62,264 bases of DNA from Escherichia coli (GCF_003334305.1 NZ_QOWS01000027.1); one strand, 5' to 3'; shown: positions 9,106 through 17,088, numbered from the stretch's first letter. Program-made: numbers and translations. The notes: generated by a model from the sequence alone, not told the origin.

Positions 9106-9381
9106 ATGTTATTACGTAATGGAATGGGATTGTTATCTAAGGATAGATATACCTCTCCAGGTAGTATGTCTATTGAACATTTCAGGTGCCTTGTTGAGAT
9201 CTCATCAATAAATAGTCAAAAAACCATTATGGCTATGGAAGATTACTTTGTTCATGGCAAGACCAGAAAAGAAGCATGTGAAAGGAACAATGTCGCACAG
9301 AGTTATTTTTCAATCAGTGTAAAAAAGTTTATTAAGATAAGTAATGCGGTTGCTCAGGCTTCCAAATTTTATAGAAGATAA
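9106..9381 (+). CDS. PapB/PixB-family fimbrial operon transcriptional regulator
   Basis: ~90-aa protein with the PapB-like block DYFVHGKTRKEACERNNVAQSYFS; first gene of the fimbrial operon; true start may be an internal Met. Confidence 0.6.
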   Translation: MLLRNGMGLLSKDRYTSPGSMSIEHFRCLVEISSINSQKTIMAMEDYFVHGKTRKEACERNNVAQSYFSISVKKFIKISNAVAQASKFYRR

Positions 9382-9425
9382 TTTTTAGTGGTAGAAAGTA
9401 GTCTAGTAATAGGAGTGTTATCTTT

Positions 9426-9932
9426 ATGTTAAAATCAACTTTGGGGATTGCTATTGCTTTTTCATTGTGTGCTGTTGCACATGCAGCCAATCAAGGGCAA
9501 GGTGTTGTTAATTTTAAAGGGACGGTAATTGATGCACCATGCGGTATTGATCCGGACTCAGCAGATCAGACTATTGACTTCGGTCAGATTTCTAAATCAC
9601 ATTTAGATGCTGATGGTATTTCTGTTAAGAAAGATTTAAATATCAAGCTAGTTAACTGTGAGCCAAATAAAAGTGTCAAAGTAACTTTTTCTGGAGCAAC
9701 GATTGCTAGTGCTGCAAATGAACTGGGGACGGCCGGTGATACTGGTACTGCGGTTGTGATTTCCGGTCAGGACGGTAAGCTAGTTTCTTTTGGTACTGAA
9801 GGTTCTGCTCAAAGTTTACAGGAAGGTGAAAATACGCTGCATTATTCTTCATGGGTAAAAAAAGCTACTGGTGGTACTGTAAAAGAAGGTGATTTTACTG
9901 CAGTTGCTAACTTTAATCTGAGTTATCAGTAA
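9426..9932 (+). CDS. Major fimbrial subunit (PapA/PixA-like pilin)
   Basis: 168 aa with signal peptide, conserved Cys pair and C-terminal beta-strand ending in Tyr (NFNLSYQ). Confidence 0.8.
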   Translation: MLKSTLGIAIAFSLCAVAHAANQGQGVVNFKGTVIDAPCGIDPDSADQTIDFGQISKSHLDADGISVKKDLNIKLVNCEPNKSVKVTFSGATIASAANELGTAGDTGTAVVISGQDGKLVSFGTEGSAQSLQEGENTLHYSSWVKKATGGTVKEGDFTAVANFNLSYQ

Positions 9933-10017
9933 GTAACATTATCCGGTTTTAACCATCTCATACACAGACCCTGGGACTTCAGTTCCAGGTCTTGCCGATA
10001 AGATTAAGGACGACTGC

Positions 10018-10605
10018 ATGTTACGACGCATGATCCTTTCGGTACTGTTTCTCTGGTGTGCAGTGGCTCAGGCTCTGCCATCAGCTTCTTTTCCACCACC
10101 GGGGATGACTTTGCCCGAGTACTGGGGAGAAGAACATGTCTGGTGGGATGGGCGGGCCAGCTTTAAAGGGCAGGTTATCGCTCCTGCCTGTACGCTGTCC
10201 ATGGAGGATGCCTGGCAGGAAATTGATATGGGAACCACGCCACTCAGGGACTTACAGAACAGTCCTGCCGGTCCCGAGAAGAAATTCCGGCTACGGCTAC
10301 GCAACTGTGAGCTTACAGGTGCAGGAAAGCAGGTCTATACGGCAACCCGGGTGCGTGTGACTTTTGATGGCATTCCCGGAGAAACACCGGACAAATTCTC
10401 GCTGACAGGTCAGGCTGAAGGTATAAATCTGCAGATTATGGATAATTACGGATATCCGGCGAGAGCAGGAAAAAGCATGCCACCTTTAATTCTCAGGGGG
10501 AATGAAGACGGGCTTGATTATTCTCTTCGCATTGTCAGAAATGGTTATCCATTAAAGGCTGGCGATTACTACGCTGCATTGCGTTTTAAACTGGACTACG
10601 AATAA
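10018..10605 (+). CDS. Fimbrial minor subunit (PapH-like anchor/terminator)
   Basis: 195 aa pilin-like with signal peptide and C-terminal FKLDYE strand; sits between the major subunit and usher as papH does. Confidence 0.55.
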   Translation: MLRRMILSVLFLWCAVAQALPSASFPPPGMTLPEYWGEEHVWWDGRASFKGQVIAPACTLSMEDAWQEIDMGTTPLRDLQNSPAGPEKKFRLRLRNCELTGAGKQVYTATRVRVTFDGIPGETPDKFSLTGQAEGINLQIMDNYGYPARAGKSMPPLILRGNEDGLDYSLRIVRNGYPLKAGDYYAALRFKLDYE

Positions 10606-10725
10606 ATACAACCGGAGTAGCCGGGCTCACTGCTATCAGCGATAGCGTTAATAATACATTCCTGAATGTTGAAGAGGGTTGGTTGCGCCCCTCAAAGTGT
10701 TTTTGTATTAAATCGGCTGCATATA

Positions 10726-14636: not shown

Positions 14637-14719
14637 GCACAGTACGCTGGCATCATTATTATCTCGTTGTGTCTTAATAACCATCTTGTTACCTCCTTGT
14701 TTTATATCAGGAGAAAGAT

Positions 14720-15238
14720 TTGAGAATAACAGTCTTTTTATTAACGTTCCTTTCCTTTTTATCTGATTTATGGGCAGTTGATATTCCAATCAACATCACG
14801 GGAACGATTATAATTCCGCCATGCCAGATAAATAACAGTAATCCTGTTGATGTTGATTTTGGTAATATCAGGGTGAGTGAACTTGACACAAAGGAACATA
14901 TCAAAGTAGTTAGTTTCCCGGTTTATTGTCCATATCATCAGGGCGAGGCATATGTAAAGATGACTGGACAGAGTATGACCGGGAAAGATAATGTTCTGGC
15001 GACAAATATTGATGGACTTGGAATTGAACTTTATCAGGGGGGGGAGGGAACTGGAAACCATCTTATCTTAGGTAGTGACTCATCCGGGTATGGATACGAA
15101 GTTATTAATGCGCTCTCTGAAAAAAATGTTGAGAGGACGACGTTCACGTTTACAGCAAAAATATATAAGGCTGAAGGTGTTACAATTAATAGCGGGGAGT
15201 TTAGTGCCAGTGCACTTATAAACATAGTTTATTTGTGA
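14720..15238 (+). CDS. Minor fimbrial subunit (adaptor pilin, PapF/PapK-like)
   Basis: 172 aa pilin-like; signal peptide, Cys pair, C-terminal strand ALINIVYL. Confidence 0.6.
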   Translation: MRITVFLLTFLSFLSDLWAVDIPINITGTIIIPPCQINNSNPVDVDFGNIRVSELDTKEHIKVVSFPVYCPYHQGEAYVKMTGQSMTGKDNVLATNIDGLGIELYQGGEGTGNHLILGSDSSGYGYEVINALSEKNVERTTFTFTAKIYKAEGVTINSGEFSASALINIVYL

Positions 15239-15260
15239 GTTTAGTTTTTAGAGATTACAT

Positions 15261-16253
15261 ATGAAATATGTCAAAAAAATATTGGGAATATCTTTCTTTT
15301 CTTTACTCCCATTATCTGCAGAAGCCGAAAGCTACTGTAACCTCCTTTGGGCGAATAATACTCTACCAAGTGCCTCAGTCAATGTCAGTTTTGATGGCAA
15401 TACATCCGGGATTTTTCCTCTCAATTTACAGGCGGGGGGCTTGTCAACTGTAATAAAAAGAGCTGCAAAAAATATGGATACTTTTGTAACGCTTGATGGA
15501 ACTTATCGATACTGGATACAGTATCCGGAAGCATGGCAGACAACCCCTGACGGACTAAAATATCGAATAACCAGCGAACTGGAGGTTTCGGGCACTCAAA
15601 CTGCAGGTGTCAAAACAGTTGTAACGCCTGTAGGTTACCATACATGGGTAAATACATACGGATGCAGGGATGTCGGGGGAACTTATGATTTTGGGGTTGC
15701 ATCTGTCAGTGGGGTGAATATTGAAATAGACAGGGGCACTGCATGGCCGGGGGTTTATTCTATACAGTTACCAGTAAAAGTTGCATATGAAGAGAATAAA
15801 GGGAATTATGACGGTAAAAATGGCGGAGGCTGGCAAGAATTTCCTGTATCCATGAAATCTTTTTCTCCGGTAGACTCTAAAGGCATCAGCATAACGATAA
15901 GCTCAAAGTGTAATGTTGGTGAACAAAGTTTGAGTGTTAATATGGGGGATAATATTACTCCGGATGAAGCAAAATCAGGTGTGGAGAAAAAGGTTAATTT
16001 TTCTCTTACTTGTAATGCCCCGGCAAAGGTATCACTATCTCTTAAAGGTACCGATATCGTCGATGGGGTCAATAACAAAACAAAATGTGGTTCTGGTAGC
16101 TGCTCTCTGAATTTTGATAATGATAGTTCATCTAAAATTCTGGAAGTAAATCAAGGAACATATCAGGTGCCGATTACAGTACGTTTTCAGGACGCAAACC
16201 CCGTTGCCGGAGGGTTTGATGGTAGTGCTGTATTATCCGTTGATATTCTATAA
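15261..16253 (+). CDS. Putative fimbrial tip adhesin (two-domain, PapG/PixG-like)
   Basis: 330 aa with signal peptide; size and last-structural-gene position typical of a tip adhesin; C-terminal pilin-like domain. Confidence 0.5.
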   Translation: MKYVKKILGISFFSLLPLSAEAESYCNLLWANNTLPSASVNVSFDGNTSGIFPLNLQAGGLSTVIKRAAKNMDTFVTLDGTYRYWIQYPEAWQTTPDGLKYRITSELEVSGTQTAGVKTVVTPVGYHTWVNTYGCRDVGGTYDFGVASVSGVNIEIDRGTAWPGVYSIQLPVKVAYEENKGNYDGKNGGGWQEFPVSMKSFSPVDSKGISITISSKCNVGEQSLSVNMGDNITPDEAKSGVEKKVNFSLTCNAPAKVSLSLKGTDIVDGVNNKTKCGSGSCSLNFDNDSSSKILEVNQGTYQVPITVRFQDANPVAGGFDGSAVLSVDIL

Positions 16254-16305
16254 TATATATTGATGTAGTCTTGCTGATTAACAAATAAATAAAGGAGTAC
16301 TTCAA

Positions 16306-17088
16306 GTGTTTAATGATATCAGAGGTGACGTCACATCGGGTTCTGATAGTTTATTGCAGGCAATACAGAAACGAGAATTCAAACCATACATTCAGCCTAT
16401 TGTTTGTGCCAGCAACCATAAAATTATTGGTGGCGAGTTGCTTGTCCGTTGGCATACATCTCATAGAGGAGTAATTTATCCAGATAGTTTTATAGATAAT
16501 ATGGAGAAAGCTGGGATTCTGTCTGAGCTTACTTGTTCTATAATCAATGAGGTGGTTGTTAATTTTGATGGTGAGAATAAATTTAATGGTGAGGATTTTA
16601 TTCTTCACGTAAATGTCGCTCCATCTCTATTGCATAATAAAAAATTCATATCCACCTGTATAAACGCTGCAAAAAAAAACAACCTGTCATTAGTTCTTGA
16701 ATTAACTGAACAGTATTTTTTTACTGTGGATAGCAAAACCATATCCACCTTTCATTGTCTAAAGGAGTCGGGTGTGCAATTTGCTTTAGATGATTTTGGG
16801 ACGGGGTATTCAAACTTATTTTATCTAAAATATTTTACAGTGGATTTTATAAAAGTAGATAAGATGTTTACCCAGGATTTAGAAGGTTGTAAACAGTCTC
16901 GTTACATTATAGAAGCAATTCTTGAATTATCCAGGAAGTTAAATATAAAAACTATCGTGGAAGGAGTTGAAACCATGGAGTTAGTAAATAAATTAATGTT
17001 GCTGGGGGTTGATTATTTTCAAGGTTATTACTTTGGTCAGGCTATTGAGCTATGTTCGTTTATTAGAGAATATAGAAAGACTGTATAG
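16306..17088 (+). CDS. EAL-domain protein (putative c-di-GMP phosphodiesterase), fimbria-associated (SfaY/PapY-like)
   Basis: 260 aa; EAL signature residues present (ELLVRW, NVAP, ELTE, DDFGTGYS, KVD, EGVE, QGYYFG); GTG start preceded by AAGGAG. Confidence 0.8.
   Translation: MFNDIRGDVTSGSDSLLQAIQKREFKPYIQPIVCASNHKIIGGELLVRWHTSHRGVIYPDSFIDNMEKAGILSELTCSIINEVVVNFDGENKFNGEDFILHVNVAPSLLHNKKFISTCINAAKKNNLSLVLELTEQYFFTVDSKTISTFHCLKESGVQFALDDFGTGYSNLFYLKYFTVDFIKVDKMFTQDLEGCKQSRYIIEAILELSRKLNIKTIVEGVETMELVNKLMLLGVDYFQGYYFGQAIELCSFIREYRKTV

Follow-up and report, generated by a model that had tools for sequence, protein, structure and literature searches.

Related fimbrial systems

The pix operon is routinely scored as a virulence-associated locus of extraintestinal pathogenic Escherichia coli (ExPEC). 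Pix fimbriae are said to have been described in 2003–2004, by Lugering et al. in 2003 (Microbiology 149:1387) and by Schneider et al. in 2004. They cause mannose-resistant haemagglutination of human erythrocytes, do not bind Gal-Gal and have no equivalents of PapK and PapE (bioRxiv 10.1101/2021.07.20.453171); their operon has PixB but no PapI (PMC12388093). In the uropathogenic strain 536, pgtABCP and pix are found together, downstream of the pheV integrase (PMC11537424).

Related operons include those of P fimbriae (papIBAHCDJKEFG), of Sfp fimbriae (sfpAHCDJFG, on plasmids of sorbitol-fermenting EHEC, with no K or E gene) and of PL fimbriae, which have K and E genes (bioRxiv 10.1101/2021.07.20.453171). 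The last gene of the S-fimbrial operon encodes an EAL phosphodiesterase, SfaY/PdeY, as stated in a passage of PMC5635171 that cites Sjostrom 2009 and Povolotsky & Hengge 2016.

Identification of the locus as the Pix operon

The window (the whole 62 264-nucleotide stretch of E. coli DNA analysed here) carries pixB-A-H-C-D-J-F-G at 9106–16253 on the plus strand, according to the ORF list and the family matches. An earlier note on this DNA had read the order as regulator, major pilin, PapH-like protein, usher, chaperone, PapJ-like protein, minor pilin and adhesin, all of which we recovered in that order, intact and on the same strand. It had given the operon a span of 9106–17088; the eight pix genes fill the larger part of this span, and the remainder holds a ninth gene (16306–17088), which the note had missed. 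The PapC-type usher, PapD-type chaperone and PapH-type terminator place the system in the pi (Pap-like) class.

That note had already suggested a resemblance to Pix fimbriae encoded on a pheV island, and near-identity to pathogenicity island PAI V of strain 536 shows that this is the Pix operon itself. Against 536, the only reference used for Pix identity (NC_008253, 3131239–3139248; the X2194 type sequence is AJ307043), PixB, PixH, PixC, PixD and PixJ are 100% identical, PixF 99.4%, PixG 99.1% and PixA 77.4%, and the whole locus is 98–100% identical. UniRef lists a sequence identical to PixB of the window as ‘PixB protein’ (Q707J3). The two loci also share the gene order pixBAHCDJFG, the upstream IS21 remnant, pgtABCP, the island and a downstream EAL gene, and this synteny (pgt, pix and pheV island), being the published arrangement of PAI V, supports the assignment. 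So does the adhesin: PixG is 63.9% identical to SfpG, in agreement with a published PixG–SfpG identity of 63% (bioRxiv 10.1101/2021.07.20.453171). We thus identify the locus, with a probability of about 0.93, as the Pix fimbrial operon pixBAHCDJFG of ExPEC in its usual pheV-island setting beside pgtPCBA. The operon is already known, and finding it here is ordinary except for the overlooked ninth gene. NCBIfam has no family for PixB, PixJ or PixG, and the pilins give sub-threshold matches only.

Two other identities were weighed. A member of the Pix/Sfp-like group other than Pix proper (Sfp, PL fimbriae or an unnamed plasmid variant) would fit the existence of related clusters: Sfp, on IncF plasmids, has the same seven structural genes and C and D proteins 89 and 94% identical to those of the window; a cluster on pB771 has H, C and D proteins 95–98% identical; and a leuX island carries a pix-like cluster. 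The adhesins of the Sfp, pB771 and leuX clusters, however, are only 52–65% identical to PixG of the window, as opposed to 99.1% for PixG of 536, and the pilin, J and F proteins of Sfp are 50–66% identical. Sfp is plasmid-borne with no upstream PapB-like regulator and no EAL gene, whereas the locus of the window lies on the chromosome and includes pixB. The divergence of the adhesin, the chromosomal location and the presence of pixB set the locus apart from Sfp, and the K and E genes of PL fimbriae set it apart from these too, so that we regard membership of another such group as very improbable.

Still less credible is a degenerate pap operon that has lost papI, papK and papE and represents no distinct fimbrial type. 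The assembly core is plainly Pap-related (1362 bits for PapC, an E-value of 1e-125 for PapD and 68% identity for PapH), members of the PapB and PapJ families are present, and the PixG model has the two-domain PapG fold. But PixG is just 11–21% identical to PapG, with a lectin domain that sequence searches miss and that is unrelated in sequence, and PixF and PixA are only 40 and 56% identical to PapF and PapA. The locus also lacks the divergent papI and the pair of GATC sites of P fimbriae, as well as papK and papE (pixF is the sole pilin gene between pixJ and pixG). Finally, the same eight-gene layout is constant across the 236 genomes with a full pix locus (5426 genomes searched), and none of the sampled matches of the pix regulatory region in the 5426 genomes is to a pap region. 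Adhesin divergence, near-identity to 536, a separate regulatory region and a stable layout effectively refute the degenerate-pap reading.

Subunits and assembly of the pilus

The first gene, pixB (9106–9381, plus strand, as are all genes of the operon), encodes a 91-aa transcriptional regulator of the PapB family (Pfam PapB, E-value 2.3e-34), which also matches the FocB structure 3m8j (E-value 7e-14, 39.5% identity). It is followed by pixA (9426–9932; 168 aa), encoding a variant allele of the major rod pilin (PapA structure 5flu, E-value 8e-40, 56.5% identity), and by pixH (10018–10605; 195 aa), encoding a PapH-like pilus terminator/anchor (2j2z, E-value 4.6e-81). The outer-membrane usher is encoded by pixC (10726–13236) and matches PapC (7lhg_C) over residues 29–834, i.e. 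at full length; its open frame begins at 10666, and the likely start is 10726, as in the PGAP annotation. For the periplasmic chaperone gene pixD (13305–14036; PapD, E-value 1.3e-125) the start at 13164 in the ORF list is over-long, and 13305 is the likely start. The product of pixJ (14073–14636) is a PapJ-like periplasmic assembly factor that covers positions 1–187 of the 187 of Pfam PapJ (PF14855, E-value 9e-103); translated from the likely start, an ATG at 14073, it has a signal peptide and 187 aa, identical throughout to the 187-aa annotation in 536. A 172-aa PapF-like adaptor pilin (7lhi_F, E-value 5e-30, 39.9% identity) is encoded by pixF (14720–15238), and the adhesin gene pixG (15261–16253) follows. 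The Pix subunits possess signal peptides, paired pilin cysteines and the C-terminal Tyr motif.

The major pilin is the one structural protein of the set that differs clearly from 536 (168 aa here, 177 aa in 536): the termini are conserved and the centre is variable, a pattern that we read as allelic variation. Alleles at least 99% identical to that of the window occur in 83 complete genomes; further classes lie at about 85% and about 75%. Pix has several major pilin alleles on a nearly invariant backbone, which is useful for curation.

The operon would build a Pap-type (pi-class) chaperone-usher pilus. Subunits with signal peptides would be captured in the periplasm by the PapD-like PixD, with PixJ as a PapJ-like helper, and would polymerise at the PapC-like usher PixC in an order that we infer to begin with the tip adhesin PixG and the adaptor PixF, to continue with the rod of many PixA copies and to end with the terminator/anchor PixH. 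As equivalents of PapK and PapE are absent, the tip should be short, without a long fibrillum.

The adhesin PixG

PixG (330 aa) is a two-domain tip adhesin with a lectin domain at about residues 23–215 and a pilin domain at about 217–330. Its likeness to PapG is at the level of fold only: the structural model matches both the lectin and the pilin domain of PapG, with the modelled receptor-binding domain about 11% identical to that of PapG, whereas a profile of 29 PixG relatives finds only the PapG pilin domain (E-value 0.05) and Pfam gives only a weak match to MrpH_C. The complete divergence of the PixG sequence from PapG fits a different receptor. The predicted PapG-like fold provides a rational construct (about residues 23–215) for glycan-array work on that receptor. 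In public annotation, this adhesin family is mislabelled as ‘nuclease PIN’ or ‘hypothetical protein’.

Upstream region and regulation

The pix regulatory region (8680–9105, plus strand) comprises 426 bp with 20% G+C and several homopolymer tracts. It has no GATC site, no papI and no ORF of at least 45 aa on either strand, and PGAP leaves it without any annotation in those pix genomes that were sampled. Nowhere in the window is there coding potential for a PapI-like protein: the best tblastn match to a PapI query has an E-value of 0.46. The absence of an upstream papI, and the AT-rich segment with an IS21 remnant in its place, had both been claimed from the sequence, and both hold. The region is found in 236 genomes, a number equal to that of full pix loci, and its sampled matches adjoin pixB; no pap regulatory region is among the sampled matches (5426 genomes searched).

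With neither GATC sites nor PapI, the Pap-type epigenetic switch of Dam, Lrp and PapI cannot operate upstream of pixB. Transcription would start in the very AT-rich region, and PixB, as a PapB-family protein, would modulate it without PapI and without sites for Dam methylation. A consensus scan gave no sigma-70-like promoter on the plus strand upstream of pixB, and the promoter and terminator sites that it returned are no more numerous than those in shuffled sequences.

Among eight strains, variation in the 426-bp region is concentrated in A/T homopolymer tracts, four of which differ in length: T8 (8876–8883), A8 (8961–8968), T7-G-T8 (9012–9028) and A7 (9063–9069); in 536, a T tract has a 10-bp deletion. 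A review calls pix phase-variable (PMC12388093), and the variable tracts are the only candidate mechanism visible in the sequence, so that slipped-strand changes of A/T homopolymers might take the place of the PapI/Dam switch. However, the errors most frequent in long-read assemblies are likewise differences in homopolymer length, tracts of 7–8 bases are short for efficient slippage, and any effect of the tracts on promoter spacing is hypothetical, as the consensus scan gave no promoter. We hold this explanation, which concerns regulation only, to be improbable. A few base substitutions are scattered outside the tracts, most of them in the two strains that diverge furthest.

In the AT-rich leader there are also short direct repeats at a spacing of 103 bp, reminiscent of the 102 bp between the two GATC sites of pap. 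We rejected the repeats as pap-like switch sites, since they contain no GATC and are probably due to chance in DNA of 20% G+C.

A ninth gene encoding an EAL-domain protein

The ninth gene (16306–17088, plus strand) encodes a predicted stand-alone EAL-domain c-di-GMP phosphodiesterase (EAL domain of the active enzyme YahA/PdeL, E-value 1.5e-42). The signature of the active class comprises the Glu of the EAL motif, Asn, ELTE, DDFG(T/A)GYS, K(V/I)D, EGVE and QG(Y/F), and the corresponding catalytic motifs are all present (E44LL, N103, E132LTE, D162D163, K183, E219GVE and Q239); judged by these motifs, the protein is apparently an active phosphodiesterase. A conserved and so far unremarked ninth member of the locus would thus be a gene for an apparently active enzyme of c-di-GMP turnover, which is of value for curation.

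The gene begins with a GTG codon 52 bp beyond the stop codon of pixG; an AGGAG ribosome-binding site precedes this GTG at 7 nt, and the consensus scan predicted no terminator in the gap. It goes together with pix in some 246 complete genomes; 246–248 of the 5426 genomes searched carry it, always on the chromosome, as compared with 236 that have the full pix locus, and a blastn search of these genomes with the gene gave pix loci only, plus two matches of 66% identity. At leuX, a pix-like cluster that has diverged deeply also ends in an EAL gene, whose product is 53% identical; this suggests that the position of the gene has been kept through deep divergence.

The EAL gene is most likely co-transcribed with pix, and its product would reduce c-di-GMP during pilus production, by analogy with SfaY/PdeY, an EAL-domain c-di-GMP phosphodiesterase whose gene likewise comes last in a fimbrial operon. 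At the DNA level, the S-fimbrial gene is not a close relative of the pix-linked one; PdeX of strain 536 is possibly the counterpart of the latter. We infer the coupling with Pix from the position of the gene. Our tentative reading, to which we give somewhat less than even odds, is that pix is a nine-gene unit in which an active EAL protein is co-transcribed and lowers c-di-GMP together with Pix expression, and in which homopolymer variation may replace the PapI/Dam switch. If so, the Pix adhesin would be linked to the decision between motility and biofilm.

Alternatively, the EAL gene might be a passenger of the island, transcribed from a promoter of its own and functionally unconnected with the pilus. 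Its product is more diverged from the copy at the same position in 536 (93.5% identity) than that of the adjacent pixG (99.1%), it occurs in two allele classes, and the Sfp and IncF pix-like clusters are without it. In some lineages it is a pseudogene, frameshifted or truncated, and is therefore dispensable for making the pilus. Against this stand the shared strand and the 52-bp gap free of a predicted terminator, the nearly equal genome counts of the gene and pix, and the retention of the same post-adhesin position in the leuX cluster, on a different island, at only 53% identity. A mere passenger is in our view rather less likely than not.

Island context

Upstream, the pix module is bounded by an IS21-family istA pseudogene (7808–8676, plus strand), annotated by PGAP in the identical RS571 locus as incomplete, with a frameshift; 536 and six other strains have this remnant ahead of pixB too. 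On the right, it is bounded by an IS3-family element (17153–18263, minus strand; an IS3 transposase with a programmed frameshift according to PGAP), inside which, at window position 17327, homology with 536 ends. Between the EAL gene and the integrase the window has this complete IS3 element and a Druantia system, whereas 536 has IS fragments only.

The pgtPCBA genes (1240–7463) lie upstream of pix; a tRNA-Phe gene (pheV) lies at 34436–34511, with yqgA and speC beyond. Direct alignment gives pheV, yqgA and speC as the flanks of the island, and we accordingly rejected pheU, the site of the near-identical island in RS571. We also considered whether 613 megablast records at 80–90% identity represent pap operons; among the sampled ones, a 470-bp pixH-like fragment in chromosomes of the O157:H7 type predominates, accompanied by clusters on IncF plasmids.

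Gene content and identity of the fimbrial locus

Eight closely spaced, intact ORFs are found on the + strand of the window between 9106 and 16253, and family matches for the individual genes agree with the order proposed in the earlier note. They are pixB (91 a.a.; Pfam PapB, E 2.3e-34, and the solved structure of FocB, E 7e-14, 39.5% identity), pixA (9426-9932, a pilin of 168 a.a.; PapA, E 8e-40, 56.5% identity), pixH (195 a.a.; PapH, E 4.6e-81, 68% identity), the usher gene pixC (PapC over the full length, 1362 bits), the chaperone gene pixD (PapD, E 1.3e-125), pixJ, pixF (a pilin of 172 a.a.; PapF, E 5e-30, 39.9% identity) and pixG (15261-16253, an adhesin of 330 a.a.). 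The start of pixJ was placed at the ATG at 14073, because the match to Pfam PapJ then spans the full length (1-187 of 187, E 9e-103). All secreted components have signal-peptide-like N-termini, and the pilins have the usual cysteine pair and C-terminal Tyr motif. The span once given for these eight genes, 9106-17088, is too long at its end: 17088 is the stop of a ninth gene that had been overlooked, encoding an EAL-domain protein.

According to a 2024 study (PMC11537424), pix and pgtABCP lie downstream of the integrase in the pheV island of uropathogenic strain 536, and the pheV region of 536 has the same series as the window: integrase, IS fragments, EAL gene, eight fimbrial genes, IS21 remnant and pgtA-B-C-P. 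PixB, PixH, PixC, PixD and PixJ are 100% identical to the 536 proteins; identity is 99.4% for PixF, 99.1% for PixG, 93.5% for the EAL protein and 77.4% for PixA. The exact sequence of the regulator is named 'PixB protein' in UniRef (Q707J3), and the UniRef clusters of PixH and PixD have the neighbouring accessions Q707J5 and Q707J7. Beyond a tRNA-Phe gene (34436-34511, minus strand) come yqgA and speC, in agreement with 536, and the island is therefore at pheV. Taken together, the identities to 536, the UniRef name and the pheV/pgt synteny identify the locus, on sequence grounds, as Pix itself, where the earlier note had claimed a likeness to it. The observation is confirmed, the evidence supports the Pix interpretation, and Pix is a system described before; the additions are modest, namely a conserved EAL gene, a modelled PapG-like fold of PixG, pixA alleles and an annotation error for PixG. 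The entire 8.5-kb stretch is present in 236 out of 5,426 complete E. coli genomes (megablast).

Relation to Pap and Sfp

Pix has been described as a pi-class fimbria with PixB and without PapI (PMC12388093); it has no equivalents of PapK and PapE, and PixG is 63% identical to SfpG, the adhesin of the related plasmid-borne Sfp fimbriae, and at most 25% identical to PapG (bioRxiv 10.1101/2021.07.20.453171). These traits are reproduced at the window locus: pixJ and pixG are separated by a single pilin gene, and PixG shares 63.9% identity with annotated sfpG (tblastn against plasmids). With a profile built from 29 PixG relatives, the pilin domain is the only part of PapG detected (E 0.05), while the fold predicted for PixG is PapG-like. 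NCBI and UniRef give PixG and its whole family (40 clusters, 37-99% identity) the name 'nuclease PIN' or 'hypothetical protein'; for a fimbrial tip adhesin this name is an annotation error.

pixA alleles and mosaic clusters

Only PixA departs substantially from its 536 counterpart: both termini are conserved, but the central part has been replaced. At least three classes of pixA alleles are found on a backbone that is otherwise at least 97% identical: the window allele (83 genomes), a class of ∼85% identity and the 536 type (∼75%). The G+C content also varies along the locus (34-40% for pixB and pixA, 49-54% for pixH, pixC and pixD, and 34-43% from pixJ through the EAL gene).

A cluster on the IncF plasmid pB771_128330 (1090-8819 of region L006) has H, C and D proteins 95-98% identical to those of Pix, whereas identity is only 39-65% for its pilin, J, F and G, and a gene of the PapB/FocB family follows the adhesin gene. 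The assembly core has therefore been exchanged as a module separate from the rod/tip genes. Another cluster, in the leuX island of E. coli isolate Tig228 (2699-10729 of region L013), adjoins the tRNA-Leu integrase and has nine diverged genes, B-A-H-C-D-J-F-G plus EAL (identity to the window: B 72%, A 73%, H 65%, C 86%, D 86%, J 40%, F 61%, G 64.5% and EAL 53%). This cluster appears to be a sister of Pix and Sfp without a name of its own. In addition, a ∼470-bp fragment 85% identical to pixH (window 10096-10567), annotated 'fimbrial protein', is found in sampled O157:H7, O55:H7 and O111 chromosomes; such fragments make up most of those sampled from the 613 records matching at 80-90% identity.

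A ninth gene encoding an EAL-domain protein

The EAL gene (16306-17088, + strand, 260 a.a.) starts 52 bp after pixG with an AGGAG ribosome-binding site ahead of it, and no terminator was predicted between the two genes. Its product aligns with the catalytically active EAL domain of YahA/PdeL (E 1.5e-42) and keeps every catalytic motif (E44LL, N103, E132LTE, D162D163FGTGYS, K183, E219GVE and Q239). The gene occurs in 248 genomes, a count near that of pix and in every case on the chromosome, and its position is the same in 536. The sole distant DNA match inspected (66% nucleotide identity) is the last gene of the Tig228 cluster; that the position is kept through such divergence argues that the predicted phosphodiesterase belongs to the pix unit. 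The Sfp and IncF pix-like clusters, however, have no EAL gene, and in some lineages the gene is frameshifted or truncated. Precedents are SfaY/PdeY of the S-fimbrial operon and the EAL protein PdeX reported from strain 536 (PMC5635171).

In several genomes two ORFs take the place of the intact EAL gene, and some lineages commonly have truncated products of 104-128 a.a. (111-187 contigs), a sign that the gene has been inactivated repeatedly.

The region upstream of pixB

An IS21 istA pseudogene (7808-8676) followed by 426 bp at 20% G+C bears out the AT-rich segment and IS21 remnant described earlier, and the reported absence of papI also holds: no ORF of at least 45 a.a. was found on either strand between the IS21 remnant and pixB, and the best match in the window to an approximate PapI query sequence had an E of 0.46. 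There is no GATC within 8000-9197 (window mean, 3.4 per kb). With neither GATC nor PapI, the pap-type Dam/Lrp/PapI switch cannot operate upstream of pixB. Given the extreme AT content, H-NS silencing with PixB-dependent relief seems the most plausible regulatory logic, as inferred from what is generally known about PapB-family regulators.

Conservation of the 426-bp segment extends to 236 genomes, a count equal to that of the full pix locus; its sampled matches adjoin pixB, with none in a pap regulatory region, and no PGAP feature lies under any of them. Among eight strains, length differences are confined to four A/T homopolymer tracts (8876-8883, 8961-8968, 9012-9028 and 9063-9069), with a 10-bp deletion in the T tract of 536, and most of the few substitutions outside the tracts come from the two strains that are most diverged. 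It is improbable that these differences represent real slipped-strand variation; they could be assembly error or noise.

Surroundings of the island

Upstream of the IS21 remnant, the window shares with PAI V, the pheV island of 536, a complete phosphoglycerate transport locus (1240-7463): pgtP (1240-2604, minus strand), pgtC (3003-4220), pgtB (4217-6226) and pgtA (6216-7463). Between the pix-adjacent IS3 element and an ISEc18 copy (transposase gene, 30229-31200) there is a complete type I Druantia anti-phage system (18513-29852), with druE (18513-24023), druD (24020-25063), druC (25075-26958), druB (26970-28616) and druA (28638-29852) all on the minus strand; PAI V, otherwise collinear, has only IS fragments in its place. 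Next to ISEc18, just inside the integrase end, a phosphoethanolamine-transferase gene is disrupted (ORF fragments 31440-32024 and 32145-32711).

The island of strain RS571 (regions L001 and L004) matches window 1-29200 at 99.99% identity and extends further, through the integrase and tRNA (window 1-34559 compared). It is located at pheU, however, with dicD/dsbD as flanks, whereas the window island is at pheV, flanked by yqgA/speC; one island therefore uses either tRNA-Phe gene.
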